64,000 nt of DNA from an uncultured Gemmatimonadota bacterium (GTDB lineage Bacteria; ARS69), in NCBI GenBank assembly GCA_964571855.1, contig CAZNDO010000001.1:863629-927628 (forward strand), in the 5' to 3' direction. Both the position numbers and the translations under genes were made by a program. A model generated the notes under the pieces. That model saw only the letters and a program-made list of their open reading frames with translations. It was not told the DNA's origin and made no database searches. Positions 5,215 through 20,536 of this stretch are shown piece by piece (the first letter of the stretch is position 1; every line of letters begins with the position of its first letter).

Positions 5215-5418
5215 CGGAAGGGCTCCTCGTGCTGGGCGAGTGGCACGGCGCCCCCCGGCGACGGGCCGGGCGGTCGCGGGATTCGTGTCCCCAAGGATGC
5301 CCGAAAACGCGCCCGCGGCGCAAGCGGGGGTGGCGCAACGCGTTGCCGGCGCGTCACCTGCGGCGCCCGCCGGTGCCGGCCCCGGCGCTTCCGCCGCGCG
5401 ATCCCGACCCCGGATGCG

Positions 5419-5424
5419 TATAAT
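5419..5424 (+). promoter_or_regulatory. Possible sigma70 -10 box (TATAAT) upstream of the BNR protein gene at 5500
   Basis: Perfect TATAAT in a very GC-rich intergenic region; no correctly spaced -35 found. Confidence 0.35.
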
Positions 5425-5499
5425 CGGAGCCGACATCCCCCCGCATGCGACCCCGGCGCGCGCTCGCCGGCTCCCGCCCACCCGGATGAGGCGACCCCG

Positions 5500-8163
5500 A
5501 TGAACCGACTCCGCGCCCCGCTCGCCGCGACCGCGATCCTCCTGACCGCCGCCTGGACCGCGCGCTTCGACGCCGCCCTTCCCGTGCCGTCCCCCGTGGA
5601 GCGGATGTCCCTCCGCTACGCCGACCGCGAGATGGAGGAGCTGCGCGAAGGGAACACGAAGGAGGAGGGCCACATCCTCGAGATGTTCGAGTGGTGGTAC
5701 GGGCAGCGCGCGTTCCCGAACGCCGAGATCCCGGCGGACGCCTGGGGACGCGCCGTGGCGTACGCGCGCGAGGCCCTCGCGCCGGAGCGCGCGGACGGCG
5801 CCGGGCCGCGCGGCAGCGGCTGGACGTCCATCGGGCCGGACAACATCGGCGGGCGCGTGCTCGCGCTGGCGGTGGATCCGGCGACGCCGTCGCGCCTGTG
5901 GGCGGGCATGGCCGCGGGCGGTCTCTGGCTCTCCACGACGGCGGGAGCCGGCGCCGACGCCTGGGACCTGATCGACACGGGCTTCCCCACCGTGTCCGTG
6001 AGCACGATCGTGATCGACCCCGCGGACACCGACCGGATGTGGATCGGCACGGGCGAGATCGGGCGGTACAACCGCGGCCAGGTGGGCACGCCGGGCGCGC
6101 GGTCGGGCTACGGGCTCGGCGTGCTGCGCTCCACGGACGGCGGCGCCACGTGGCTCGCCACCGGGCTCGACTGGACCTTCGACCAGAACCGGTGCGTGCA
6201 GCGGCTGCAGCAGGATCCGGCCACGCCGTCCGTGCTGTGGGCCGCCACCACCGAGGGCGTGTACAAGTCCACGGACTCCGGCGCCACGTGGGCGGTGTCG
6301 AACGCGGTGCTCATGGCCATGGATCTCGTGGTCGATCCGGGCGCGCCGAACACCGTGTACGCCTCGCACGGCCAGCTCGGCGTGCCGGACGACACGCAGG
6401 CCGGCATCTGGCGCACGACGGACGGCGGATCGTCGTGGGCGCGGCTCGGCGGCGGGCTGCCGACCACGAACTTCGGCCGCACCGCGCTCACCGCGTACGA
6501 GTCCGGCGCGGGGCCCGCGGTGGTGTACGCCGGCGTCTCCAGCTCCACGACGCGGCAGGTGGTGGGCCTGTACCGGACCACGAACGGCGGCTCCACGTGG
6601 ACGCAGCAGTCGTCGCAGAACTGGGCGTCCTCGCAGGCCTGGTACGACAACGTGATCGCGGTGCACCCCAGCGACGCGAACCTGGTGCTGTGCGCCGGAC
6701 TGGACATGTGGCGCACCACGAACGGCGGCGGCAACCTCACCGACGTCACCGCGTGGTACCTGGGCTACGACTTCGTGGTGCCGGCCGGCGGCCCCGAGGG
6801 CCCGCCCGACTACATCCACGCGGACTCGCACGCCATCGTGTTCGACCCGACGAACCCGGGCATCGTGTACGTGGGGACGGACGGCGGCGTCTTCCGGTCC
6901 ACCGACACCGGCGCGACGTGGGCGGGCCGCAACGGCGGGCTCGTGACCACGCAGTTCTACGCGGGGTTCGCGAACGGGTACACCACGCAGGACCTGGCGC
7001 TCGGCGGCCTGCAGGACAACGGGACGATCAAGTACCTGGGCACGCCGTCCTGGTCCAAGGTGTTCGGCGGCGACGGCGGCTGGTGCGCCATCGACCCCAC
7101 CGACGAGGACGTGCTGTACGAGGAGTACGTGTACGCGAACATGTACAAGAGCACGGACGGCGGGAACAGCTGGTTCGAGGTGCACGAGTACAACTCGTCG
7201 GTGGCGAACTTCATCGCGCCGTTCGTGCTGGCGGAGAGCAGCCCGAACGTGCTCTACGTCGGGCAGCTCGCCGTGCAGAAGACCACGAACGGCGGGGCGA
7301 GCTGGTCCTACACGGGCGGCTCGTCCAACTGGAACGGCACGCCGGTGTGCACGATCGGCGTGTCCTTCACCAGTCCGGACACGGCGCTGGCGGCCACGGG
7401 CTCGTCGTCCGCCACGGCCACGTTCGAGCTGCGCCGCACGGTGAACGGCAGCGTGTGGACGGACGTGACCGCGGGGCTGCCGAACCGGTACCTCACGGAC
7501 ATCGCGTACGACCCGAACGACAGCCGCGACGTGTGGATCTCGTTCTCCGGATACGGCACGCCGCACGTGTTCTCGTCCACGGACGCGGGCGCCACCTGGG
7601 CGGACCGCACCGCGAACCTGCCCGACATCCCCTGCCAGGCGGTGGTGGTGGACCCGGTGAACCCCGCGCACGTGTACGTGGGCACGGACCTGAGCGTGTA
7701 CCGGACCACGGACGGCGGCGCCTCCTGGCACGACTTCAGCGCGGGGATGCCGCCGGCGATGATCACGGATCTCGTGTTCAAGAAGGACGACCGGCTGCTG
7801 CGCTGCGCCACCTTCGGCAACGGCGTGTACGAGCGCGACGTCACGAGCGACCCGACCGGCGCGCCCCAGGTGGCGGCGGCCGGCGCCGACCTGCGGATGT
7901 CCGCCCCGGCGCCGAACCCGTTCCGCACGGGGACGTCGGTGGCCCTCACGCTGCCGCACGCGGCGAACGTGCGGGCCGTGGTGTACGACGCGGCGGGCCG
8001 GCGCGTGCGCACCCTGACGGACGGCGCGCGGACCGCCGGCACGGTGCGGCTGGACTGGGACGGGGCGGACGACGCGGGCCGCCGCGTGGCGGCCGGGGCG
8101 TACTTCGTGAAGGTGCGCGCGGGGGGCGAGGAGCGGTCGGCGAAGGTGACGCTGCTGCGTTAG
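5500..8163 (+). CDS. Secreted BNR/Asp-box beta-propeller protein with FlgD-Ig/T9SS-like C-terminal domain
   Basis: Start MNRLRAPLAATAILL; WTSIGPDNIGGR, repeated STDGGATW boxes, and PAPNPF...YDAAGRRVRTL...WDGADDAGRRVAAGAYF tail. Confidence 0.85.
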   Translation: MNRLRAPLAATAILLTAAWTARFDAALPVPSPVERMSLRYADREMEELREGNTKEEGHILEMFEWWYGQRAFPNAEIPADAWGRAVAYAREALAPERADGAGPRGSGWTSIGPDNIGGRVLALAVDPATPSRLWAGMAAGGLWLSTTAGAGADAWDLIDTGFPTVSVSTIVIDPADTDRMWIGTGEIGRYNRGQVGTPGARSGYGLGVLRSTDGGATWLATGLDWTFDQNRCVQRLQQDPATPSVLWAATTEGVYKSTDSGATWAVSNAVLMAMDLVVDPGAPNTVYASHGQLGVPDDTQAGIWRTTDGGSSWARLGGGLPTTNFGRTALTAYESGAGPAVVYAGVSSSTTRQVVGLYRTTNGGSTWTQQSSQNWASSQAWYDNVIAVHPSDANLVLCAGLDMWRTTNGGGNLTDVTAWYLGYDFVVPAGGPEGPPDYIHADSHAIVFDPTNPGIVYVGTDGGVFRSTDTGATWAGRNGGLVTTQFYAGFANGYTTQDLALGGLQDNGTIKYLGTPSWSKVFGGDGGWCAIDPTDEDVLYEEYVYANMYKSTDGGNSWFEVHEYNSSVANFIAPFVLAESSPNVLYVGQLAVQKTTNGGASWSYTGGSSNWNGTPVCTIGVSFTSPDTALAATGSSSATATFELRRTVNGSVWTDVTAGLPNRYLTDIAYDPNDSRDVWISFSGYGTPHVFSSTDAGATWADRTANLPDIPCQAVVVDPVNPAHVYVGTDLSVYRTTDGGASWHDFSAGMPPAMITDLVFKKDDRLLRCATFGNGVYERDVTSDPTGAPQVAAAGADLRMSAPAPNPFRTGTSVALTLPHAANVRAVVYDAAGRRVRTLTDGARTAGTVRLDWDGADDAGRRVAAGAYFVKVRAGGEERSAKVTLLR

Positions 8164-8438
8164 GCCGGGCCGGCTCCGGGCTCCGCTTCCGCAGGCAGGT
8201 CGCGGATGGCCTCCGGCGCGAGGTCCGTTCCGTTCGGCCAACCGACCGTCCCGGTCACGCCGTCCACGCGCACGCGCGCGAAGTACGCCGGATCCCGCAG
8301 CGGCTCGAAGACGGGGCCGACCAACAGGGGCAGGAGGTTGACGCGCTTGCGCATGCCGTCGCTGAAGCGCACGCGCAAGGAGTGTCCGCCGCACGGCCGA
8401 ACCTCGAGTATCCGGAGGACGTCACGAGATACCACCAC
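8160..8438 (-). CDS. DUF2442-family protein (putative antitoxin of a DUF4160-DUF2442 pair)
   Basis: ILEVRPCGGHSLRVRFSDG...GPVFEPLRDPAYFARVRVDGVTGTVGWPNGTDLAPE; lies immediately downstream of a DUF4160 gene. Confidence 0.8.
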   Translation of the reverse strand: MVVSRDVLRILEVRPCGGHSLRVRFSDGMRKRVNLLPLLVGPVFEPLRDPAYFARVRVDGVTGTVGWPNGTDLAPEAIRDLPAEAEPGAGPA

Positions 8439-8440
8439 GA

Positions 8441-8701
8441 TCACTCCAGGGGCGGGACGGGAAGCAACGGAAGACCGCGCCGTGCCCGGCGCCAGTTCCG
8501 CGCCAGCGCGTGTGCGTGGAGTGTACTCCACTCGCGCACCATGGCCAGCGCCCGACGGGGCAAGGCGCCCGCGAGGACCTCTCCATCGGCGACTCGAATC
8601 GCGGCCTGGTCGGAGCCGTAGATCGCGTGGAAGTGCGGCGGCTCGTGATCCCGTCAGTAGATGTAGATCGAGATGCCGAAGAACTCCGAGATCCGCGGCA
8701 A
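8441..8701 (-). pseudogene. DUF4160-family gene with in-frame TGA at codon 16
   Basis: Hand translation from TTG 8701: (M)PRISEFFGISIYIY*RDHEPPHFHAIYG...VREW...H...NW...PPLE*. The internal stop is at 8654-8656 and the frame is otherwise intact. Confidence 0.75.
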
Positions 8702-8815
8702 TGAGGCCCCCCGGTCTTCCCGGGAACCGGCCTGCGGAGGCGCAAGGCGGCCCGGAGCCGTACGCTGCCGGCGGGCGCATGTTCGTCAATCCCGCGCGGG
8801 AACATCCGGTCCTGT

Positions 8816-8844
8816 TTGACACACCCCGGGGCCGTTGCTAGCCT
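8816..8844 (+). promoter_or_regulatory. Sigma70-type promoter of the pspA-like operon
   Basis: TTGACA (8816-8821), 17-nt spacer, TAGCCT (8839-8844) preceded by an extended -10 TG. Confidence 0.6.
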
Positions 8845-8917
8845 GCCGCAAAATCCGTACCAGACGCCGCACCCGCTCGCGGCCGAAGGGGCCGTCCTCG
8901 ACGCGAAGGAGCCTCTC

Positions 8918-9673
8918 ATGTGGAACCGGGTCGCCAACCTCTTCAAGGGCTTCCTCAGCCTCTTCATCTCCGGCATCGAGCGCGAGAACCCGCGCGCGCT
9001 GATCGAGGTGGAGAAGGAGAACCTGCGCAATCAGATCGCCCGGTTCAACGACAACCTCGCCACCCACGCCGGCTTCTGCGAGCGGCTGCTCCGGCAGGTG
9101 AAGAACCTGGAGACGCAGGAGCGTGATCTGGCCGCGAAGGCGGCCGCGAACCTCAAGGTGGGGAACCGCGGCCCGGCCGCGCAGTACGCGCTGCAGCTCA
9201 AGACCGTGAAGGAGCAGCTGGAGGAGAACCGCGCGCAGCTCAAGGCCGCGGAGGAGACCTACACGAAGCTGGTCCAGGCGCGCGACGTGTCGGTGCGCGA
9301 TGCGCAGGCGAAGATCGAGAAGCTGAAGCGCATGCTGACCGAGACGGAGATGATGGAGGCGCAGGCCGAGCTGCAGGAGATGGCCACGGGGATGATCTCG
9401 TCCATCGGCGGCGCGGGCGAGACGATCAACCGCGTGGAGGAGTACCTGACCGAGCGGCACGACAAGGCCGCGGGCCGCGCCCGCGTGGCCGGCTCCACGA
9501 TGGACACGTCCAAGGTGCAGCTGATGGAGGCCGAGCAGCAGGCGCTCGCGGACCAGGCGCTGAGCGAGTTCGCCGCCGCGTACGGGCTGGACGTGCCCCC
9601 GGCGGAGGCGGCCACGGAGGCGCCCGCGGCACCGCCGCCCGCGCGCGACATGGGACCGGTGAAGGAAGGCTAG
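8918..9673 (+). CDS. pspA: PspA/IM30 (ESCRT-III-like) family protein
   Basis: MWNRVANLF amphipathic N-terminus, ENPRALIE (cf. EDP in PspA), long coiled coil and KAAGRARVA; AAGGAG RBS before ATG 8918. The symbol denotes the family, not proven orthology. Confidence 0.8.
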   Translation: MWNRVANLFKGFLSLFISGIERENPRALIEVEKENLRNQIARFNDNLATHAGFCERLLRQVKNLETQERDLAAKAAANLKVGNRGPAAQYALQLKTVKEQLEENRAQLKAAEETYTKLVQARDVSVRDAQAKIEKLKRMLTETEMMEAQAELQEMATGMISSIGGAGETINRVEEYLTERHDKAAGRARVAGSTMDTSKVQLMEAEQQALADQALSEFAAAYGLDVPPAEAATEAPAAPPPARDMGPVKEG

Positions 9674-9725
9674 GGACCCGCGGGCGCACGCCGCACGGCG
9701 GCCCGACTGACGAGGAGGGAAGACG

Positions 9726-11462
9726 ATGGCCGAGGAGAAAGTCGGACCGACCGCCCTGGGCAAGCTGATCCTGTTCGTGTTCGTGGCGGCCGCGCTGGCC
9801 GGCTCCGCGTACTACTTCCGCGACACGCTCTTCCCGGCCGGCGAGGACGGCCAGCGGCAGGTGAACCTGGACGCCTTCAAGGACCAGGCGGGGAAGGTGG
9901 AGGCGCCGGACACGAAGGGCATCACCACCGTCAACGAGTACACGTACATCCCGGCGGACAAGCTCCCGCCGGTGAAGGGCGTCTCGAACTACAAGTGGGA
10001 CGAGGCGGAGAAGGTGGTGCAGTTCCCGATCAACGTGTGGATCGGCTGGCTCCCCATCGTGGCGGCGAACCACGGCTTCGCCCCGAACGAGGAGTCGATC
10101 TTCTTCAGGAAGTACGGCTTCAAGGTCAACCTGAAGCTGATCGACGACCCGGTCACCGCGCGGGACGCCTTCGCCGCCGGCGAGAGCCACATCCTGTGGG
10201 GCACGCTGGACATGATCGCGCTGTTCGCGCCGGACCTGATGAAGGATTCGCGCACGGCGCCCCGCGTGTACCAGCAGATCGACTGGTCCAACGGCGGCGA
10301 CGGCATCGTCGTGCGCGGCACGGTGAGCACGGTGCGGGACCTCAAGGGCAAGACCGTGGTCTACGCGCAGAACAGCCCGTCGCAGTACTTCATCAACAAC
10401 CTGCTGATCGCGGGCGGCATCCAGCCCTCCGAGGTGAACCACAAGTACACCGCCACCGCGTTCGAGGCGGCGGCGGCGTTCGTGGCCGACAAGCGGATCG
10501 ACGCGTGCGTCTCCTGGGCGCCGGACATCTACAACATCCCGGAGAAGGTGGCGGGGACGCGCATCCTCACCACCACGTCGGAGGCGAACAAGCTGATCGC
10601 GGACGTGTGGGCGGCGCGCGCGGACTTCGCGAAGGACCACCCGGACATCATCAAGGGCCTGGTGGCGGGGATCTTCGAGGGGATGGACCAGCTCGGCGAC
10701 GACGGGTTCAAGGCGCAGGCCTTCCAGTGGATGGCCGAGGGCTACGGCATGCCCGTGGAGGAGGTGCAGGGGATGGCGCTGGACGCGCACTCCACGAACT
10801 TCGCCGAGAACAAGGACTTCTTCCTGAACGCGAACAGCCCCACGAACTTCGAGCGCACCTGGAAGAACATCACCTTCGTGTACCGGGAGCTGGGGCTCAT
10901 CGCCACGCCGGCCCGCTTCGACGAGGTGCTGGACTTCTCCGTGATCCAGGCCCTGGACGCCGAGGGGCTGTTCAAGCACCAGAAGGACACGTACGCGTCC
11001 ACGTTCGCGCCGATGTCGTACTCGAAGGTGTCTGCGGAGGCGCCGATCGTCACGCAGACGATCCGCATCAACTTCTACCCCAACTCGTCGAACCTGCGCG
11101 AGCCGCAGCACGACGACCTGGGCAACCCGATGCCGGGCACCCTGTACGATCCCACGGTGGACGCCACGCTGGACAAGGTGGGGCGCCTGGCCGGGCAGTA
11201 CGAGCGCGCCGTGATCGCGGTGCTCGGGCACACGGACTCGTCCATGAAGGGGAAGGGCGTGCCGTACGACGAGGTGCAGAAGCTCTCCGCGGAGCGCGCG
11301 AACGCCGTCATGCAGGAGCTGGTGAAGCAGTTCAAGTTCGACCCCAACAAGTTCGTCGTGGAGGGGAAGGCGTGGGACGAGCCGGCCGATCCGGAGGATC
11401 CCCTGAACCACGCGATGAACCGCCGGGTCGAGATCGCGGTGTACCCGCCCGAGGCCAAGTAG
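9726..11462 (+). CDS. ABC substrate-binding protein (NMT1/SsuA-like) fused to a C-terminal OmpA-like peptidoglycan-binding domain
   Basis: N-terminal TM anchor; WIGWLP, DWSNGGDGIVVR, DLKGK (SBP); GHTD, LSAERANAV, NRRVEI (OmpA C-domain). Confidence 0.85.
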   Translation: MAEEKVGPTALGKLILFVFVAAALAGSAYYFRDTLFPAGEDGQRQVNLDAFKDQAGKVEAPDTKGITTVNEYTYIPADKLPPVKGVSNYKWDEAEKVVQFPINVWIGWLPIVAANHGFAPNEESIFFRKYGFKVNLKLIDDPVTARDAFAAGESHILWGTLDMIALFAPDLMKDSRTAPRVYQQIDWSNGGDGIVVRGTVSTVRDLKGKTVVYAQNSPSQYFINNLLIAGGIQPSEVNHKYTATAFEAAAAFVADKRIDACVSWAPDIYNIPEKVAGTRILTTTSEANKLIADVWAARADFAKDHPDIIKGLVAGIFEGMDQLGDDGFKAQAFQWMAEGYGMPVEEVQGMALDAHSTNFAENKDFFLNANSPTNFERTWKNITFVYRELGLIATPARFDEVLDFSVIQALDAEGLFKHQKDTYASTFAPMSYSKVSAEAPIVTQTIRINFYPNSSNLREPQHDDLGNPMPGTLYDPTVDATLDKVGRLAGQYERAVIAVLGHTDSSMKGKGVPYDEVQKLSAERANAVMQELVKQFKFDPNKFVVEGKAWDEPADPEDPLNHAMNRRVEIAVYPPEAK

Positions 11463-11466
11463 ACGC

Positions 11467-12291
11467 GTGAGCGGCGCGAAGGCGGGCGGCGGCATGCTGC
11501 GCATCCGCGAGCGGATCCCGGCGTGGCAGTCCTGGGCGCTCGGGGCCGTGCCGGTCGCGCTGCTGCTCCTCGTCTGGACGGTGATGACGTGGGGGAAGGA
11601 GGCGGAGAGCCGCCTCATCTCCCCCACGATCCTGCCGAGCCCCCGGGAGGTGCTGCTCTCGTTCCGCGAGCTGTGGTTCGAGCGGGCCGTGGCGCGGAAC
11701 CTCCTGGTGTCGTTCGGGCGGGTGGTCGAGGGCTTCGCGCTGGCGGTGGCGGTGGTCTTCCCGCTCGGCGTGGCCATGGGCGCGTTCACGAAGGTGCGCG
11801 CGGCGTTCACGCCCATCTCGGTCTTCGGCGCGTACCTGCCCATCCCCACGCTGGTGCCGCTCACGCTGAGCCTGTTCGGCACCGGCGAGCTGCAGAAGGT
11901 GGTGTTCCTGGCGCTGGCGTTCGGCATCTACCTGCTGCCGCTGATCGCGGCGGCGGTGGAGTCCGTGGAGGACACGTACCTCAAGGGCGCGTACACGCTG
12001 GGCGCGAGCCGCCGGCAGATCGTGGGGAAGGTGATGCTGCCGATCGCGTGGCCGCAGATCTGGGAGGCGCTGCGGCTGGGGTTCGGCGTGGGCTGGAGCT
12101 ACATCCTGCTGGCCGAGATGGTGGACATCGGGAAGGGGTTGGGCGGGATCATCATGACGTCGCAGCGGCGCGGGCCGCGCGAGCACATCTACCTGGTGCT
12201 GGTGCTCATCGTCGTCGTGGCGTTCCTCACCGACAAGGCGTGGATGGCGGCGGGGAAGCGGCTGTTCCCGTGGAAGGCCGCGCCGCGATGA
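11467..12291 (+). CDS. ABC transporter permease (TauC/SsuC-like)
   Basis: ILPSP.EV motif, multiple TM segments, EAA-like loop YLKGAYTLGASRRQ, and GWSYILLAEM. Confidence 0.9.
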   Translation: MSGAKAGGGMLRIRERIPAWQSWALGAVPVALLLLVWTVMTWGKEAESRLISPTILPSPREVLLSFRELWFERAVARNLLVSFGRVVEGFALAVAVVFPLGVAMGAFTKVRAAFTPISVFGAYLPIPTLVPLTLSLFGTGELQKVVFLALAFGIYLLPLIAAAVESVEDTYLKGAYTLGASRRQIVGKVMLPIAWPQIWEALRLGFGVGWSYILLAEMVDIGKGLGGIIMTSQRRGPREHIYLVLVLIVVVAFLTDKAWMAAGKRLFPWKAAPR

Positions 12292-13151
12292 CGGCCCCGG
12301 CGGCGGGCGGGGCGGCGGCGAAAGCCGCGGCGGTCCCCGCGGTGGTGGAGTTCCGCGACGTCTCCAAGACGTTCAACCCCGGCACGCCGCGCGCCTTCAC
12401 CGCGATCAAGGACGTGACGTTCCGCGTGGAGGACAAGCCGGACTACGGCGAGTTCATCTCCATCGTGGGCCCGTCGGGCTGCGGGAAGTCCACCATCCTG
12501 AACCTGATCCAGGGCTTCGACGACGTGTACCCGCCCACCACCGGCGACGTGCTGGTGCGGGACCGGAAGGTGGAGGGTCCCGGCCGGGACCGCGGCATGA
12601 TCTTCCAGAAGTACAGCTCGTTCCCGCACCGCACGGTGCTGCAGAACGTGACGCTCGGCCTGGAGATCAACCATGCGGAGCTGGGGATGTCGGCATCCGC
12701 GCGGGAGGACCTGGCCGCGACGTGGCTGAAGAAGGTGGGGCTGCACGGCCACGAGCACAAGTACCCCGGCCAGCTCTCGGGCGGGCAGCAGCAGCGCGTG
12801 GCCATCGCGCGCACGCTGGTGCTGAAGCCGCGCATCATCCTCATGGACGAGCCCTTCTCGGCGCTGGACGAGCCCACGCGGTGCGACATGCAGCGGCTCA
12901 TCATGGAGCTGTGGCACGAGGTGCAGGCCACGGTGTTCCTGGTGACGCACTCGCTGATCGAGGCCGTGTACCTGGGGGATCGCGTGTGGATCATCACGCG
13001 CGCGCCGGGGCGGATCGGCCGGGAGTTCGCGGACATCATCCCGCCCACGCGGGACGCGGACCCGCTGGCCGTGCAGGAGTCGCCGCCGTTCAAGGCGGCG
13101 GTGGCCGAGGTGGGCGAGGCGTTCCGCGCGCTCGAAGCGCAGCGGGGGTGA
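12288..13151 (+). CDS. ABC transporter ATP-binding protein (TauB/SsuB-like)
   Basis: GPSGCGKST, LSGGQQQRVAIAR, ILMDEPFSALD and VTH; ATGA overlap with the permease stop. Confidence 0.92.
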   Translation: MTAPAAGGAAAKAAAVPAVVEFRDVSKTFNPGTPRAFTAIKDVTFRVEDKPDYGEFISIVGPSGCGKSTILNLIQGFDDVYPPTTGDVLVRDRKVEGPGRDRGMIFQKYSSFPHRTVLQNVTLGLEINHAELGMSASAREDLAATWLKKVGLHGHEHKYPGQLSGGQQQRVAIARTLVLKPRIILMDEPFSALDEPTRCDMQRLIMELWHEVQATVFLVTHSLIEAVYLGDRVWIITRAPGRIGREFADIIPPTRDADPLAVQESPPFKAAVAEVGEAFRALEAQRG

Positions 13152-13155
13152 CGCC

Positions 13156-14064
13156 GTGGCCGACGCGCCGCTGACCTACTGGGACTACGTGAAGGCGGCG
13201 TTCTCGCGCGGGCATCGCGTGCCCGGCATGGGGCGCATGCCCCTCAACCAGATGGGCCTGTTCGTGTTCGGCCTGCTCGGCATCGCGAACCCGGGCTTCT
13301 GGTTCCTGGGCGCGGCGGCGGAGCTGGCGTACCTGGGGACGCTGTCGTCGAACCCCCGCTTCCAGCGGCTCGTGCAGGGCGAGCGCCTGGAGAAGCGGCA
13401 GCAGCGCGTGGACACGCAGGTGCGACGGAGCCTCGCGTCGCTGGACCCGGCCTCCTACGAACGCTACCGCCGGCTGCACAACGAGTGCACGCAGATCCTC
13501 GGGCTCGCGCCCGCGCGCAACGAGCGGGAGCTGGGCGCCTTGACGGACATGCGGGCCGGCGGGCTGAACCAGCTCCTGGCCCTGTTCCAGCGCCTGCTCA
13601 TGTCGCGGCGCGTGATCCTGGCGAACCTGTCCACGCTGGACCGCGAGGCGCTGGAGGCGGACGTGGCGCGGCTCGCGGAGCGGCTGAAGGAGGCGGGGCC
13701 GGACACGCCGCTCGCGCGCTCGCTCTCGGCCACGCACGACATCCAGACGAAGCGGCTGGCGAACCTGGCGAAGGCGCAGGAGAGCCTGGTGGTGATCGAC
13801 GCGGAACTCACGCGGATCGAGCAGCAGGTGCGGCTCATCCGCGAGGAGACCGCGGTGTCCGGCGGACCGGAGGTGCTGTCCTCGCGCCTGGACGCGGTGA
13901 CCGCCACGCTGGACGAGACCTCGAAGTGGATGGACCAGAACGCGGAGATCCTGGGCGGGCTGACCGACGACATCGAGCTGGGCGCGCGGCTGCCGGAGCT
14001 GGGGCCGGAACCCGGGCCGGAGCGCCCGCCGCCGCCCCCGCGCGGGAGGCGGCAGCGGGAGTGA
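13156..14064 (+). CDS. Hypothetical protein with N-terminal membrane hairpin and long coiled-coil/helical region
   Basis: Hydrophobic GLFVFGLLGIANPGFWFLGAAAELAYL followed by heptad-rich helices; 4 nt after the ABC ATPase gene. Confidence 0.75.
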   Translation: MADAPLTYWDYVKAAFSRGHRVPGMGRMPLNQMGLFVFGLLGIANPGFWFLGAAAELAYLGTLSSNPRFQRLVQGERLEKRQQRVDTQVRRSLASLDPASYERYRRLHNECTQILGLAPARNERELGALTDMRAGGLNQLLALFQRLLMSRRVILANLSTLDREALEADVARLAERLKEAGPDTPLARSLSATHDIQTKRLANLAKAQESLVVIDAELTRIEQQVRLIREETAVSGGPEVLSSRLDAVTATLDETSKWMDQNAEILGGLTDDIELGARLPELGPEPGPERPPPPPRGRRQRE

Positions 14065-14171: not shown

Positions 14172-14621
14172 ATGTCGTCCCGTCGCAGGAACGCGTTCAT
14201 CGGCATCATCCCGATCGCGGCGCTCGGCGCGGCCGGTTGCGCCGGCCCCGCCGGCCCGTCGCCGGGCGAGATCACGGGCACCTGGAACGCCACGCGGATC
14301 GAGTACGTGAGCAAGGCCACGAGCGAGACCGTGGACGCCGTGCCGCTCGGCTGGGCGGCCGCCCTGGTCCTCAACGCGGACGCCACCTTCGTCTTCACGC
14401 TCACGCCGGCCGGGGAAGCGCCGCAGGTGCTCTCGTCGAACTGGGAGCTGGACGGCGACCTGCTGCGTCTCGTGTTCCCCGGCGGCGGCGTGATCGCGTG
14501 GGACGCGGCGCTGCAGGGCGACGTGCTGGAGCTGACGGGGGCCGACGGCGCCTACGACTTCGACGCCGACGGCACGATGGACCCCGCCAAGCAGAACATC
14601 ACGCTGACCCGCGCGCCGTGA
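14172..14621 (+). CDS. Putative lipoprotein, lipocalin-like beta-barrel
   Basis: GGAGG RBS, lipobox-like AAGC, and ITGTWNAT (GxW lipocalin-like motif). Confidence 0.6.
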   Translation: MSSRRRNAFIGIIPIAALGAAGCAGPAGPSPGEITGTWNATRIEYVSKATSETVDAVPLGWAAALVLNADATFVFTLTPAGEAPQVLSSNWELDGDLLRLVFPGGGVIAWDAALQGDVLELTGADGAYDFDADGTMDPAKQNITLTRAP

Positions 14622-14628
14622 GCGCGCG

Positions 14629-15189
14629 CTACTTCGGCCAGAGCCAGCCGAACGTGCCCGCGGTGAGGAAGGCGTAGATGAGGCCGTCCAGCGTGTACTT
14701 CACGCTCATGGACCACGGGCGCCTGTACCAGATGGACATCTGCCAGAGCGCCACCGTGTAGCCGATGAACGACGTGGCGCCGGCGAAGCGGAAGACGTCC
14801 AGGTAGTGCGCGCCCGGCGCGAGCGCGCGACCGGCGATGTACGCGGCGAAGAAGCCCACGACCGCGCAGTACACGAACCACGTGGCCAGGTTCTTCCCCA
14901 TGGTGAACGGCCCGTTCGGCATCACCGTGAGCATCATCACGGGACCCTGCTGCAGCTTCTCGGCGAACTCGGGCGTGCGCATCTCCGCGCCGCTGGACGC
15001 GCGCGGCATCATGTAGTCGCCCGGCGGGATGGCCAGCGGGCGCAGCGCGTCCCGCACCTTGTCCTCGTTCGGGAGCTTCGGGTAGTCCGTGCGGTGCCAG
15101 AGCGGACCCATGTGCAGGATGGAGCTGGCAACGAACACGATCACGGCGGACACGAGCGTGGGCACGAGCAGGGAATCGAGACCGGTCAT
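14629..15189 (-). CDS. Conserved hypothetical membrane protein (about 4 TM)
   Basis: [27 protein letters not shown]...[13 protein letters not shown] plus three further hydrophobic segments; strong codon bias. Confidence 0.7.
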
Positions 15190-15392
15190 CGCGGCCCTCC
15201 TGGGGTGGGGGAACGGGCGGGAGGGTAGCGCGAAGCGTCCGTGCCACCAAGGGCCACCGGGTGGCCGGCGATCGGCCGGGGGGGGCACCCGCGGCGGCGT
15301 CCCGCCGGCGAGCGACGGTTGCCGGATCCCGGGGAGCGCCGGCGGGTTCATTCCGCGTTCGCCTCGACCCGTCCACTCCCTGGGGGTCCACC

Positions 15393-15869
15393 GTGTTGCC
15401 AGTCCGTCTGCTGCTCCCGCTCCTTCCCCTGCTGCTCGCGGCGGCCGACCCGGCGGCGGCCGGGGAGCCCGGGGAGCGGGTCTTCACCGTGCATCTGGGC
15501 AACGCCGTCACGCACCACCGGGACCGACCGGATCACAACAACCGCCCACGCCTCGTGGGGCTGGAGGTACGGCGCGAGGACGACTGGCTCGCCGGGGCGG
15601 CCACCTTCCGGAACTCCTATCGGCAGCGCTCGGCCTACACGTTCCTCGGGCGTCGATTCGAGGGGGCCCACGGCCGGCTCTACGGGAAGGTGACCGGCGG
15701 CCTGCTCGTGGGTTACCGTGGCGAGCACCGCGACAAGATCCCGCTGAACCGCTTCGGCGTGGCGCCTGCCGTGATTCCGTCCGCGGGAGTGCAGGTGCGA
15801 CGCTACAGCGGGGAACTGGTCGTGCTCGCGGCGTCCGCCCTCATGCTCAACGTGGGGGTCACGTTCTGA
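15393..15869 (+). CDS. Small outer-membrane beta-barrel-like exported protein
   Basis: Signal peptide; [35 protein letters not shown]; C-terminal aromatic residue (GVTF). Confidence 0.6.
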
Positions 15870-15883
15870 GCCCGGAGGTGCCC

Positions 15884-17740
15884 ATGCACGCGGAGTCCGC
15901 CGCCCCGTCCGCCGCGCCGCCGTCGCCGTCCGCACCCTTTCCCGCGTGGGCGCGCGAGATGCGCGAGCTGTTCCGCGCCGGCACCACCAGCCAGTTCATG
16001 CTGCACGGCAACATCTTCGACCTCGTCCCCTCGCCGGACGGCAAGGACTTCCTGCCGCTGCGGCAGTACCTCACGGAGGTGATGTTCGATCCCTTCGAGG
16101 TCGTGGTGCAGTACGACCGGGGCAAGGGCATCCGCGTGCGCAAGGGGATGGAGGCGTTCCACCGGTTCCTCAAGGCGTTCGACACGTTCCAGGGGACGTC
16201 CTGGGCGTCGCTGCCGGCGGAAGGGGACGACAAGCTGGAGGGGCTGGCGCTGGCCGGGCAGCTCCCGCGGGATCCGAAGCGCGCGCTGGAGCTGATCGAC
16301 CGCTTCCTCCGCGGCGCCCTCGCGCGCACGAAGGCGGAGAACGGGAAGACCGTGGCGGATCCCATGCGCGTGGCGGTGATCCTGGATTACGCGCACTTCA
16401 TCGCGCCGCAGGGCGACCCGCTGTACATGGCGGATCTCAGCCAGACGCTCATCCAGATCGTGGACTGGGGGTCCGACCCCGCCGTGACCGGCGCGTTCGT
16501 GGCCACCGTACTGATCACGGAGAACCTGGCGGACCTGAACCGGCAGCTCGTGGAGAGCCCGTACAGCGCGAAGCTCCGGATCGAGCTGCCGCAGGCGGAG
16601 GAGTTGCGCGCCTTCGTGGAGCACGCCACCGCGGACGTCGCGGACTTCGCCGCGGCGTGCGAGGTGCCGCGCGAGACGCTGGCTTCGCGGCTCGTGGGGC
16701 TGTCGCGCGTGTCCGTGCGCACCATGCTGCGGCGCGCGGTCTCGTCGGGCGAGCGCATCACCGGCGCCTACCTCACGAAGGTGAAGAAGGAGATCATCGA
16801 GAAGGAGGCGTTCGGGCGGCTGGAGTTCCTGGAGTCGAAGCGCACGCTGGACGACGTGGCCGGGCACGACGAGGCCAAGGCGTGGCTGCGCCAGGACGCG
16901 GTGCTGCTGCGCAAGGGCGTGACCGCGGCCATCCCCATGGGCTACCTCTTGACCGGCCGCATCGGCACCGGCAAGACCTACCTGGTGGAGTGCCTGGCCG
17001 GCGAGATCGGGATCCCGTGCGTGGAGCTCAAGAACTTCCGCGAGAAGTGGGTGGGCGCCACCGAGGGGAACCTGGAGAAGGTGTTCCACATCCTGCACGC
17101 GCTGGGGCAGGTCATCGTCTTCGTGGACGAGGCGGACCAGGCCATGGGCAAGCGCGGCGGCGACGACGGGGACTCCGGGTTGTCCGGCCGCATCTACGCG
17201 ATGATGGCGAAGGAGATGAGCGACACGAGGAACCGCGGGAGGATCATCTGGATCTTCGCCACGTCGCGGCCGGACCTCCTGGAGGTGGACCTGAAGCGGC
17301 AGGGGCGCCTGGACGTGCACATCCCGCTCTTCCCGCCGGGGACGAAGGAGGGGCGCGCCGCGCTCTTCGCGGCGATGGCGCGCAAGCTCCGCGTGCCGAT
17401 CAAGCCGGAGGAGCTGCCGGAGCTTCCGGCGAACGACGGGCTCGGCGGCAACGAGATGGAAGGCATCCTCGTGCGCGCACTGCGCGTGTTCGAGACCCAG
17501 GGCGAGGCGCGCGGCGATGCGAAGGAAGGTCCGGGCGCGCCGGGGAAGTCCCTGCCGGACGTGATCCGCGAGGTGATCAAGGACGTGCGTCCCTCCGCGC
17601 ACACGGAGCGCCTGGAGCTGATGGACATGCTGGCCGTGAAGGAGTGCACGGACACGCGCTTCCTGCCGGAGCGCTTCCGCAAGCTGGTGGCCGCCGACGT
17701 GAACGAGCGCATCGCGCGGCTCAAGGCGGCGATCGAGTAG
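15884..17740 (+). CDS. AAA+ ATPase with degenerate N-terminal and intact C-terminal AAA module
   Basis: N-terminal QFMLHGNIFD and VILDYAH; C-terminal Walker A GRIGTGKT, Walker B VIVFVDEAD, ATSRPD and KRQGRLD; GGAGG RBS before ATG 15884. Confidence 0.85.
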   Translation: MHAESAAPSAAPPSPSAPFPAWAREMRELFRAGTTSQFMLHGNIFDLVPSPDGKDFLPLRQYLTEVMFDPFEVVVQYDRGKGIRVRKGMEAFHRFLKAFDTFQGTSWASLPAEGDDKLEGLALAGQLPRDPKRALELIDRFLRGALARTKAENGKTVADPMRVAVILDYAHFIAPQGDPLYMADLSQTLIQIVDWGSDPAVTGAFVATVLITENLADLNRQLVESPYSAKLRIELPQAEELRAFVEHATADVADFAAACEVPRETLASRLVGLSRVSVRTMLRRAVSSGERITGAYLTKVKKEIIEKEAFGRLEFLESKRTLDDVAGHDEAKAWLRQDAVLLRKGVTAAIPMGYLLTGRIGTGKTYLVECLAGEIGIPCVELKNFREKWVGATEGNLEKVFHILHALGQVIVFVDEADQAMGKRGGDDGDSGLSGRIYAMMAKEMSDTRNRGRIIWIFATSRPDLLEVDLKRQGRLDVHIPLFPPGTKEGRAALFAAMARKLRVPIKPEELPELPANDGLGGNEMEGILVRALRVFETQGEARGDAKEGPGAPGKSLPDVIREVIKDVRPSAHTERLELMDMLAVKECTDTRFLPERFRKLVAADVNERIARLKAAIE

Positions 17741-17842: not shown

Positions 17843-19045
17843 ATGATCCGCCGCGACCTCGAGCCCCGCCTCCGGGCGCTGGCCCGGAAGTTCCCCATCG
17901 TGACCGTCACGGGGCCCCGCCAGTCGGGCAAGACGACACTTTGCCGGGCCGTCTTCGGGGGGCTCCCGTACGTGTCCCTCGAGGCACCGGACATCCGCGC
18001 GTACGCGCAGGAGGATCCCCGCGGCTTCCTGGAGGGGTACCGGGAAGGCGCGGTCCTGGATGAGATCCACCGGGCGCCCGACCTGCTCTCGTACCTGCAG
18101 CCGCTGGTGGATGCCCGTCCGGAGGCCCGGGGCAGGTTCGTCCTGACCGGATCCGCGAACTTCGCCCTCCTGCAGTCCCTGGGGCAGACGCTGGCCGGAC
18201 GAACGGCCCTGCTGGAGCTGCTGCCGCTCGGACTTGCGGAGACACGCCGCTTCGAGGGCGCGCCGGATGATCCGTGGGCGCTGCTGGTGCGGGGCAGCTA
18301 CCCCGCGACCTACGACCGGGACCTCGACTCCGGGGACTGGTACCCGAGCTACGTGGCCACGTACCTCGAGCGCGACGTGCGCGCGCTGCTGAACGTGGGC
18401 GACCTGGTCGCCTTCCAGACGTTTCTCCGCCTGTGCGCGGGGCGGGTGGCGCAGCTCGTGAACCTGTCGTCACTGGGCGCGGATGCCGGGATCACGCACA
18501 ACACGGCGAAGGCGTGGCTATCGGTCCTGGAGGCGGGGTACGTGGCCTGGCGCCTGCCGCCGCTGCACGCCAACGTCGCGAAGCGACTCGTGAAGACGCC
18601 GAAGCTGCACTTCCTGGACGCCGGCCTGGTCTGCCACCTCCTCGGCATCCGATCCGCGCGGCAGCTCCTCGATCATCCGCTGCGCGGTCCGATCTTCGAG
18701 ACGTGGGTGGCCGCCGAGATCCGGAAGGCGCGCGCGCATCGCGGGCTCGGCGCCGATCCGCTGGCGTTCTACCGGGATCGGCGCGGCGCGGAGGTCGATC
18801 TGGTTGTCGAGACCGCGGCGGAGATCCTGGCGGTGGAGTGCAAGAGCGGCGCGACCGTCGCCGCGGACTCGCTCGCCGGACTGGAGGCGTTCGCGGGCGT
18901 CATGCGCACCGCGTCGCCCGCGCGGAAGGTCCGCGGCTTCCTCGTCTACCCGGGACGGGAGAAGCAGAAGCGCGCGGCCGGCTCGGTCGTGCCGTGGACG
19001 GCGATGGACCGCGCGAGATGGTGGGACCCCGAGGAGGTCGGCTGA
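17843..19045 (+). CDS. AAA_14 + DUF4143 ATP-binding protein
   Basis: VTGPRQSGKTT, LDEIHR, LTGS, LAGR, KRLVKTPKLHFLDAGL, FETWV, and YRD...EVDLV...VECKSG (PD-(D/E)xK-like tail). Confidence 0.9.
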   Translation: MIRRDLEPRLRALARKFPIVTVTGPRQSGKTTLCRAVFGGLPYVSLEAPDIRAYAQEDPRGFLEGYREGAVLDEIHRAPDLLSYLQPLVDARPEARGRFVLTGSANFALLQSLGQTLAGRTALLELLPLGLAETRRFEGAPDDPWALLVRGSYPATYDRDLDSGDWYPSYVATYLERDVRALLNVGDLVAFQTFLRLCAGRVAQLVNLSSLGADAGITHNTAKAWLSVLEAGYVAWRLPPLHANVAKRLVKTPKLHFLDAGLVCHLLGIRSARQLLDHPLRGPIFETWVAAEIRKARAHRGLGADPLAFYRDRRGAEVDLVVETAAEILAVECKSGATVAADSLAGLEAFAGVMRTASPARKVRGFLVYPGREKQKRAAGSVVPWTAMDRARWWDPEEVG

Positions 19046-19048
19046 GCG

Positions 19049-20536
19049 ATGACGCGTCACGTGCTCGCGGTGGATCAGGGCACCACGGGGACCACGGTCC
19101 TCCTGCTGGATCGCAAGGGCCGCATCCGCGGGCGCGGCTACGCGGAGCTGCCGCAGCACTTCCCGAAGCCGGGGTGGGTGGAGCACGACGGGGAAGAGAT
19201 CCTCGGCAGCGTGGCCGCCGCGACGAAGCGCGCGCTGAAGGATGCCGGCGCGAAGGCGGCGAGCGTGGACGCCGTGGGCATCACGAACCAGCGGGAAACC
19301 ACGTTGGTGTGGGACCGGCGGACGTCGCGGCCGATCCACCGCGCCATCGTGTGGCAGGATCGGCGGACGGCGGCGCGCTGCGCCGAGCTGCGGCGCGAGG
19401 GTCGCGAGCGGGACATCCGCCGCCGCACGGGGCTCGTCCCGGATCCGTACTTCTCGGCCACGAAGCTCGAGTGGCTGCTGCGGCACGTGCCGCGCGCGGC
19501 GTCCCGCGCCGCGAAGGGCGCCCTGGCGTTCGGCACCGTGGACACGTGGCTCGTGTGGAAGCTCGCCGGCGGCGCGCACGTCACGGATCCCACGAACGCA
19601 TCGCGCACGATGCTCTACGGGCTGCGGTCCCTGGACTGGGACGACGCGATGCTGGACCGCTTCGGCGTCCCGAGGGACGTCCTGCCGGAAGTTCGCCCGT
19701 CCTCCGGCGTCTTCGCGACGACGAAGGGCGCCGGCTTCCTGCCGGACGGCATCCCGATCGCGGGGATCGCCGGCGACCAGCAGGCCGCGCTGTTCGGCCA
19801 GGGCTGCGTGGCCGCCGGGCAGAGCAAGAACACGTACGGCACGGGCTGCTTCCTGCTGCTGCACACGGGCGCGAAGCCGGTGGCGTCGCGCAGCGGGCTG
19901 CTCACCACGGTGGCGTGCGGGCCGCGCGGGGAGCCGGCGTACGCGCTGGAGGGGAGCGTGTTCGTCGCGGGCGCCGCGCTGCAGTGGCTGCGCGACGGGC
20001 TGCGCATCCTGGACCGCGCCGCCGACAGCGAGGCCGCGGCGCGCTCCGTGCCGGACGCGGGCGGCGTGGTGCTCGTGCCCGCCTTCGCGGGACTGGGCGC
20101 GCCGCACTGGCGGCCCGACGTGCGCGGCGCGCTGCTCGGCGTCACGCGCGGGACCACGCGCGCGCACGTGATCCGCGCCGCGCTGGAGTCGCTGGCGCTG
20201 CAGAGCCTGGACCTCGTGCGCGCGATGGAGCGGGACGCCGCGCGCCGAGCCCGCCGGCTGCGCGTGGACGGCGGCGCCGCCGCGAACGACTGGCTCATGC
20301 AGTACCAGGCGGACGTGCTCGGCGTGCCGGTGGAACGGCCCGCCGTGATCGAGACCACGGCGCTCGGGGCGGGACTGCTGGCCGGGATCGCGGTGGGCTT
20401 CTGGTCCTCGCAGGCGGAGGCGGCGCGGGCGCGACGGATCGAGCGCGTGTTCCGGCCGGCGCGAAGCGCGGCGTGGCGGCGCGGCGAGGTGGAGCGGTGG
20501 CAGGCCGCCGTGCGCTGCCTGCTCGGTCCCGCCTGA
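19049..20536 (+). CDS. glpK: Glycerol kinase
   Basis: [70 protein letters not shown] and ETTALGA. Confidence 0.92.

Follow-up and report, generated by a model that had tools for sequence, protein, structure and literature searches.

A conserved PspA cassette with a membrane coiled-coil partner, a AAA+ ATPase and an ABC importer in a probable Gemmatimonadota bacterium

In a 64-kb stretch of DNA (the whole of which is referred to here as the window) from a probable Gemmatimonadota bacterium, five co-oriented genes between positions 8816 and 14064 encode a member of the PspA family, a substrate-binding protein with an OmpA-like domain (SBP-OmpA), the permease and the ATPase of an ATP-binding cassette (ABC) importer, and a transmembrane (TM) coiled-coil protein, which is the product of gene 5. 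We conclude that PspA, the gene 5 protein and an AAA+ ATPase encoded further downstream probably form the three-protein core of an ATP-driven membrane-maintenance module, together with which the importer would be expressed (Table 1). An earlier reading of the same sequence, referred to here as the original prediction, had taken the five genes as the unit and had interpreted them as a machine for membrane remodelling or envelope repair that is linked to a peptidoglycan-tethered ABC complex. What this prediction observed at the locus held, i.e. the positions and spacing of the genes, an ESCRT-III-like PspA as the first gene product, an OmpA-like domain on the binding protein, a sigma70-type promoter, and the absence of pspB, pspC and pspF; by contrast, its interpretation was supported only in part.

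The G+C content of the window is 70-78%. The five genes lie on the + strand with intergenic gaps of 52, 4, -4 and 4 nucleotides (nt), and no intrinsic terminators were predicted between them on this strand. Position 8816 is the start of the -35 hexamer and not the coding start of pspA, the ATG of which lies 6 nt 3' of the Shine-Dalgarno sequence.

A genome scan seeded with gene 5 yielded 37 loci from Gemmatimonadota (90% identity), Eisenbacteria, Krumholzibacteriota and several classes of Acidobacteriota. The order pspA, SBP-OmpA, permease, ATPase and gene 5 is kept in the same orientation in 35 of these 37 loci, in which the gaps are short or the genes overlap; moreover, the AAA+ gene is on the same strand in 32 of the loci with conserved order, and in most related loci it is located directly 3' of gene 5 or within a few hundred nt of it. 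A scan of metagenome loci seeded with PspA was added to avoid ascertainment bias. Where PspA is at least 61% identical to that of the window, the gene for SBP-OmpA comes next in 30/32 loci, and all six genes are present in 11 of the 12 loci with enough sequence. Thus, the ABC genes and pspA are syntenic in both scans and in at least four phyla, as the original prediction had supposed.

The same scan of metagenome loci revealed a sister clade, in which PspA is 55-59% identical to that of the window. Here, gene 5 is located next to pspA in 28 of 29 loci and the AAA+ gene is present in 19 of 19 loci, while there are no ABC genes. Moreover, the slot of the ABC genes is filled differently in two variants, i.e. 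by two RDD proteins and a CitMHS-like transporter in locus L039, and by SBP_bac_11 and VWA proteins on another contig. Because the sister clade runs without ABC genes and the modules in the slot vary, we regard PspA, gene 5 and the AAA+ ATPase as the core. Similarly, because the sister clade lacks the ABC genes, the ABC system is considered an accessory; as judged from gene order, the importer genes were inserted between pspA and gene 5 in one clade and have been kept there. In total, the conserved partners of PspA are gene 5 and the AAA+ ATPase, the latter of which the original prediction had missed, and the machine does not centre on the ABC complex.

Beyond the cassette, no conserved flanking genes were found. 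The cassette proteins of loci L002-L037 are 70-85% identical to those of the window across phyla, which is unusually high; for gene 5, the identity is 50-64%. The high identity across phyla together with the unconserved flanks argues that the cassette may have spread by horizontal transfer, and the pattern of identities as such suggests either that the cassette was transferred horizontally as a whole or that it is under extreme constraint. The cassette is abundant in soils and sludge, where it is represented by thousands of protein clusters. The PspA clade is, however, not always associated with these partners, as seen in locus L081 from a low-G+C organism, in which a PspA that belongs to the clade (63% identity) and shares its C-terminal helix stands alone, is followed by ispG and has no cassette partners.

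These observations bear on the question of whether the importer is coupled to the core at all. An ordinary importer might have landed between pspA and gene 5 and might then have spread horizontally with the cassette without any functional coupling: in the sister clade, the three core genes do without it, unrelated transport modules fill the same slot, the flanks are not conserved, and the level of cross-phylum identity fits spread as a block. However, a neutral passenger would be expected to have been lost or rearranged in some lineages, whereas essentially every locus of the clade of the window (clade A), in four phyla, has the genes in the same order and orientation and either tightly spaced or overlapping. 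Moreover, PspA and the binding protein show about the same degree of conservation. On balance, we consider it distinctly improbable that the importer is a passenger.

The first gene product matches the Pfam family PF04012 with 38.5 bits, which is a small margin above the cutoff of 33.9, over profile positions 2-216 of 220. The clade is considered divergent because a profile of its members matched no PspA or Vipp1 chain among the sequences in the PDB. The AlphaFold2 model, which is of moderate confidence (predicted local distance difference test, pLDDT, 69), has helices at residues 2-23, 25-81, 84-137, 142-161 and 166-187, following the alpha0-alpha5 pattern, and the protein has an N-terminal helix alpha0 as well as an extra conserved C-terminal helix at residues 205-222. 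With this model, the top Foldseek matches were Vipp1, PspA, CdvB2, Asgard ESCRT-IIIB, CHMP2A/3 and CHMP1B, with probabilities of 0.9-1.0 for most of them (maximum 1.00) and a best E-value of 1.4e-3. We conclude that the first gene encodes a PspA/IM30 member with a predicted ESCRT-III fold. The C-terminal helix is conserved as EAEQQALADQALxEFAAAYG, and the protein ends in DMGP.

The AAA+ ATPase scores 86 bits against the Pfam AAA family, and PF00004 is the only domain detected in it. Its C-terminal half contains a Walker A motif (GRIGTGKT), a Walker B motif (VFVDEAD), a pore loop (KWVG) and the arginines of an RQGR motif, and among the PDB sequences it is closest to the D2 domains of VAT, Cdc48 and p97; on the basis of these motifs, this half is clearly a classical AAA domain of the active type. 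By contrast, the N-terminal 320 residues contain no Walker motifs, the N-terminal half has no sequence match in the PDB by phmmer, and it has no significant match to the C-terminal half by hhalign. With the CdvC model, the protein scores 42.7 bits against a cutoff of 650 and, thus, is not assigned to the Vps4/CdvC family.

In the window, a 1.8-kb insertion of three genes (14172-15869) lies between gene 5 and the AAA+ gene; among the loci examined, it is shared only with the closest relatives, L001 and L038. As a result of this insertion, one gene of which is on the opposite strand, the ATPase gene is no longer coupled to the operon in this genome. A copy of the inserted membrane protein with 42% identity is encoded upstream of pspA in the metagenome locus L069.

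The family of gene 5 comprises 1304 clusters at 50% identity, and gene 5 itself has no match in Pfam or NCBIfam. According to the AlphaFold2 model (pLDDT 81.5), the protein contains two short hydrophobic helices at residues 30-44 and 46-65 with an NPGFW turn between them, followed by a cytoplasmic helical and coiled-coil domain with a long hairpin and by a disordered, proline-rich and basic tail (LPxLPE...PPPPPR). Its helices at residues 135-180, 185-235, 238-261 and 263-277 are compatible with an ESCRT-III core, a likeness that was not counted as evidence. No Snf7 or PspA Pfam match was found in the family, first with 31 and then with 117 members, even at E <= 1, and profiles of gene 5 matched no ESCRT-III chain among the PDB sequences. 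In Foldseek, the best matches were BAR domains (E = 0.13), with CdvB2 at rank 32 and a probability of 0.11. Finally, the comparison of gene 5 with the co-encoded PspA clade by hhalign was no better than a reversed control; a weak match between the C-terminal tails of gene 5 and PspA (P = 0.012 with narrow profiles) vanished with a deeper profile. Because the same Foldseek procedure recognised PspA as ESCRT-III, we hold the fold of gene 5 to be unproven, and we conclude that gene 5 is a membrane coiled-coil partner of unproven fold. Since likeness to ESCRT-III/Snf7 could not be shown, it is the genomic context that points to an adaptor role for this protein.

In the close clade, the tail of gene 5 is conserved as LPxLPE...PPPPPR(x)KQK at residues ~278-296. 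In eukaryotes, proline-rich MIM2-type motifs recruit Vps4, and we presume that the tail of gene 5 resembles such motifs. Either this tail or the C-terminal helix and DMGP end of PspA could be a candidate docking site for the ATPase.

The three genes between pspA and gene 5 encode a complete set of the NitT/TauT type, i.e. an NMT1/PBP2 binding protein, a BPD_transp_1 permease and an ABC ATPase. The binding protein begins with a hydrophobic anchor or signal, followed by an NMT1/TauA-like PBP2 domain at residues ~100-390 and an OmpA-like domain at residues ~475-575, and its nearest PDB sequences are TauA (6ssy, 6e-8) and the OmpA-like domain of Omp38. The OmpA-like domain (PF00691) scores 35 bits against a Pfam cutoff of 27.2 and carries GHTDS...LSAERANAV, which conforms to the TD...LSxxRA motif; in known OmpA-like members, the residues of this motif contact peptidoglycan. 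The fusion is kept in all 120 listed homologues of the binding protein, which are 74-96% identical and have the same architecture. An importer with a binding protein tethered to the wall is an unusual architecture. No equivalog-level NCBIfam match was obtained for genes 2-4, all scores being far below the cutoffs (TauB 192 vs 357, TauC 103 vs 342, and a putative urea-associated SBP 71 vs 334). Because of these low scores, no substrate can be assigned to the importer, and neither the NCBIfam models nor the nearest solved relatives allowed one to be deduced.

The original prediction held that the ABC complex is not a simple nutrient importer. It might instead be a mechanical or sensory element, in which the binding protein would report or enforce the distance between membrane and wall, or report wall damage, and would signal via the permease to PspA. 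The main point for this proposal is that genes for proteins resembling binding proteins recur beside gene 5 without permease and ATPase, as in the variant with SBP_bac_11 and VWA; moreover, the OmpA fusion is invariant among the listed homologues, and the ABC genes are located inside the PspA operon and not merely beside it. However, the importer has a full set of intact components and catalytic motifs, which are typical of its TauABC/SsuABC/NrtABC relatives, the sister clade dispenses with the ABC genes altogether, and no precedent is known for a mechanosensor in this transporter family. Similarly, the exposure of gene 5 to the periplasm is almost nil; because it exposes only the NPGF turn, direct contact with the binding protein is unlikely. 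Altogether, we found no support for setting the importer function aside, and we consider a sensory role unlikely.

The promoter upstream of pspA has, in addition to its two hexamers, an extended -10 TG at 8836-8837. By phylogenetic footprinting, the element TTGACn-17/18-TGnTAnnCT, located 80-100 nt upstream of the pspA ATG, was matched in at least 9 of 10 positions in 26 of 36 loci, while 0/700 control windows reached even 8/10; moreover, the element is unique on both strands of the 64-kb window. A generic promoter scan of the locus called no promoter because its -10 rule wants a closer match to TATAAT; this null result is, therefore, superseded by the comparison across loci. No sigma54-type -24/-12 motif was found upstream of pspA, the best match covering 6/10 positions, and the sole signature of a sigma54-type activator (GAFTGA) in the window is at ~58.9 kb on the + strand, ~45 kb from pspA.

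The match of the first gene product to the PspA family is the one feature that the locus shares with the phage-shock (Psp) response of the enterobacterial type. That response is defined by partners that are absent here: no pspF, pspB or pspC is encoded nearby, and a conserved sigma70-type promoter is present in place of a sigma54 promoter. The absence of these defining partners refutes a classical Psp regulon, a reading to which we assign next to no probability. Similarly, a regulatory RNA in the inferred 5' leader of pspA was rejected: the leader has no match in Rfam, it folds no better than shuffled sequence (z = 0.52), and no consensus structure was found across 26 pspA leaders.

The operon is covered at low depth by contigs from wastewater and sludge metatranscriptomes, which stem from closely related strains. 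One RNA contig extends from 8842 past the pspA stop codon to 9718, and others bridge the junctions between the SBP and permease genes and between the permease and ATPase genes; upstream of ~8800, the coverage is low. In the region that encodes the ABC ATPase motifs (12512-12835), the depth of both RNA and DNA contigs spikes to 80-525x, which is cross-mapping from ABC genes of other organisms and not expression.

In the module that we favour, PspA would polymerise on the cytoplasmic face of the inner membrane via its predicted amphipathic helix alpha0, and gene 5 most likely provides PspA with a membrane anchor or a site of nucleation there, i.e. it would take the role of LiaI, PspB/C or archaeal CdvA in other systems. 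The AAA+ ATPase, the aromatic pore loop of which is intact, most likely threads subunits out of the PspA assembly, the gene 5 assembly or both, and would in this way recycle the polymer; it would be a functional analogue of Vps4/CdvC and not a homologous member of that family. The importer, for its part, would be expressed from the same strong and conserved sigma70-type promoter, with its binding protein held at the peptidoglycan by the OmpA-like domain, and most likely takes up a small polar solute within the same programme of envelope or osmotic homeostasis.

Several points weigh against this proposal. In the literature, we found no experimental work on the module. The ATPase has no MIT domain and is closest to the D2 domains of Cdc48/VAT and not to Vps4, and neither phmmer nor hhalign supported the notion that its N-terminal half is a degenerate AAA domain. 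Likewise, gene 5 as an ESCRT-III/Snf7 protein was unsupported by Pfam, the PDB profile search, Foldseek and hhalign. The ATPase gene is separated from gene 5 in the window, is non-adjacent in the Thermoanaerobaculaceae/Holophagae loci L013, L024 and L025, and is 8.9 kb away in L014. Finally, some of the metatranscriptome libraries may contain DNA, and the RNA contigs end at 8805-8842, at or slightly upstream of the predicted start, which is too imprecise for public RNA runs to confirm the start site of transcription.

This architecture has been predicted before on computational grounds. Ravi et al. 2024, mSystems (PMC11237479), described PspA with a "membrane-associated Snf7" and a two-domain AAA+ ATPase, the N-terminal copy of which was held to be inactive, and their Table S3 lists the same six-gene order for OGG56892.1 from Candidatus Handelsmanbacteria; in their proposal, solute transport is tied to a remodelling of membranes that depends on ATP. 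The locus described here agrees with theirs in gene order and in the domain architecture of each of the six proteins. By contrast, the AAA+ gene is displaced here by the three-gene insertion, the cassette comes from activated sludge and its host is probably a member of the Gemmatimonadota, and neither the "divergent Snf7" label for gene 5 nor the "inactive AAA" label for the N-terminal half of the ATPase was reproduced in our analyses. The locus is, thus, a further member of a published type with a rearranged ATPase gene. As the idea is already in the literature, its value is that of a well-delimited, testable example and not of a discovery.

Like archaeal CdvA/CdvB/CdvC and eukaryotic ESCRT-III/Vps4, the cassette follows a logic of three parts that are encoded together: a polymer with the ESCRT-III fold, an adaptor at the membrane, which is the presumed role of gene 5 here, and an AAA+ ATPase of the classical clade that has an aromatic pore loop. 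However, the ATPase described here lacks not only an MIT domain but also the C-terminal helix of Vps4 and is twice as long, gene 5 is unrelated to CdvA, and the polymer belongs to the PspA/Vipp1 branch and not to the Snf7/CdvB branch. Similarly, the Psp system of E. coli (pspF-pspABCDE) and the Lia system of B. subtilis (liaIH) combine an effector of the PspA family with a small membrane partner, LiaI and PspB/C being analogous to gene 5; unlike these systems, the cassette is not under the control of PspF/sigma54 and lacks PspB/C and LiaI-LiaF-TM domains, and it includes a dedicated, non-transcriptional AAA+ ATPase and an embedded ABC importer. The importer shares with TauABC, SsuABC and NrtABCD (NitT/TauT) the NMT1/PBP2 binding protein, the BPD_transp_1 permease and the TauB-like ATPase; it differs from them in scores far below the equivalog cutoffs, in the OmpA-like fusion on the binding protein and in being embedded in a PspA operon.

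The disassembly of bacterial ESCRT-III-like polymers such as PspA and Vipp1 is an open question, and in the cassette PspA is encoded together with a membrane partner and a dedicated AAA+ ATPase that has a pore loop. According to a 2025 review (PMC7619361), an ATPase like Vps4 "appears absent in bacteria". More far-reaching is the proposal that the cassette constitutes a self-contained ESCRT-III machine that spreads horizontally, in which gene 5, as a new class of fold, would nucleate PspA, the Cdc48-like AAA+ ATPase would disassemble it, and the ABC permease would couple the wall-tethered protein to the polymer so that remodelling follows the state of the cell wall. If this were true, the Cdc48-like ATPase would be the "missing" bacterial counterpart of Vps4; we consider this scenario quite unlikely. 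For the membrane-maintenance module, the three-gene systems of the sister clade and the six-gene systems of the clade of the window offer compact systems for reconstituting ATP-driven PspA dynamics.

Table 1. Positions in the window of the cassette genes, the inserted genes and the promoter region
Feature	Positions	Strand	Description
sigma70-type promoter	8816-8844	+	-35 TTGACA 8816-8821; 17-nt spacer; -10 TAGCCT 8839-8844
inferred 5' leader	8851-8917	+	~67 nt; carries GAAGGAG (Shine-Dalgarno) at 8905-8911
pspA (gene 1)	8918-9673	+	251 aa; divergent PspA/IM30, predicted ESCRT-III fold; Pfam PF04012
SBP-OmpA (gene 2)	9726-11462	+	578-aa substrate-binding protein; Pfam OmpA and NMT1
ABC permease (gene 3)	11467-12291	+	BPD_transp_1; TauC/SaoP-like
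ABC ATPase (gene 4)	12288-13151	+	TauB/NrtCD-like; start overlaps permease stop by 4 nt
gene 5	13156-14064	+	302-aa TM coiled-coil protein; no Pfam or NCBIfam match
inserted gene, lipoprotein-like	14172-14621	+	no Pfam match
inserted gene, membrane protein	14629-15189	-	no Pfam match
inserted gene, 158-aa protein	15393-15869	+	no Pfam match
AAA+ ATPase	15884-17740	+	618 aa; Pfam AAA (PF00004)

On the opposite strand and divergent from pspA, a DUF4160/DUF2442 pair is encoded at 8160-8699. The DUF4160 frame, which starts with TTG at 8699, is interrupted by an in-frame TGA at codon 16 (...ISIYIY*RDHEPPHFH...), where an aromatic residue is the norm; if this codon is read as W, the frame scores 69.9 bits against PF13711, and it is probably a pseudogene or the result of a sequencing error. 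Immediately 3' of the AAA+ gene, a DUF4143/AAA_14 ATPase is encoded at 17843-19045 (+). This gene was not found downstream in the closest relative, L001, and may, therefore, be mobile or recently inserted.

Neighbours of this kind are frequent in mobile regions, and the locus might accordingly be read as an anti-phage defence system, the more so as the AAA+ ATPase has weak generic matches to the IetA/IteA models and the ABC ATPase to defence ATPases. However, these PADLOC matches are explained by shared P-loop and AAA domains, no system-specific component was detected among them, and the neighbours are not conserved in the other loci. Moreover, the composition and the conservation of the cassette look like those of a housekeeping or stress module of the envelope, and we regard a function in defence as very improbable.

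Further upstream, the gene at 5401-8163 (+), which is unrelated to the operon, codes for a large secreted protein that contains repeats of the Sortilin/Vps10 type and has an FlgD_ig domain at its C-terminus. Downstream of the DUF4143/AAA_14 gene, the glycerol kinase GlpK is encoded at 19049-20536 (+), with a score of 693 bits, which is above the cutoff.

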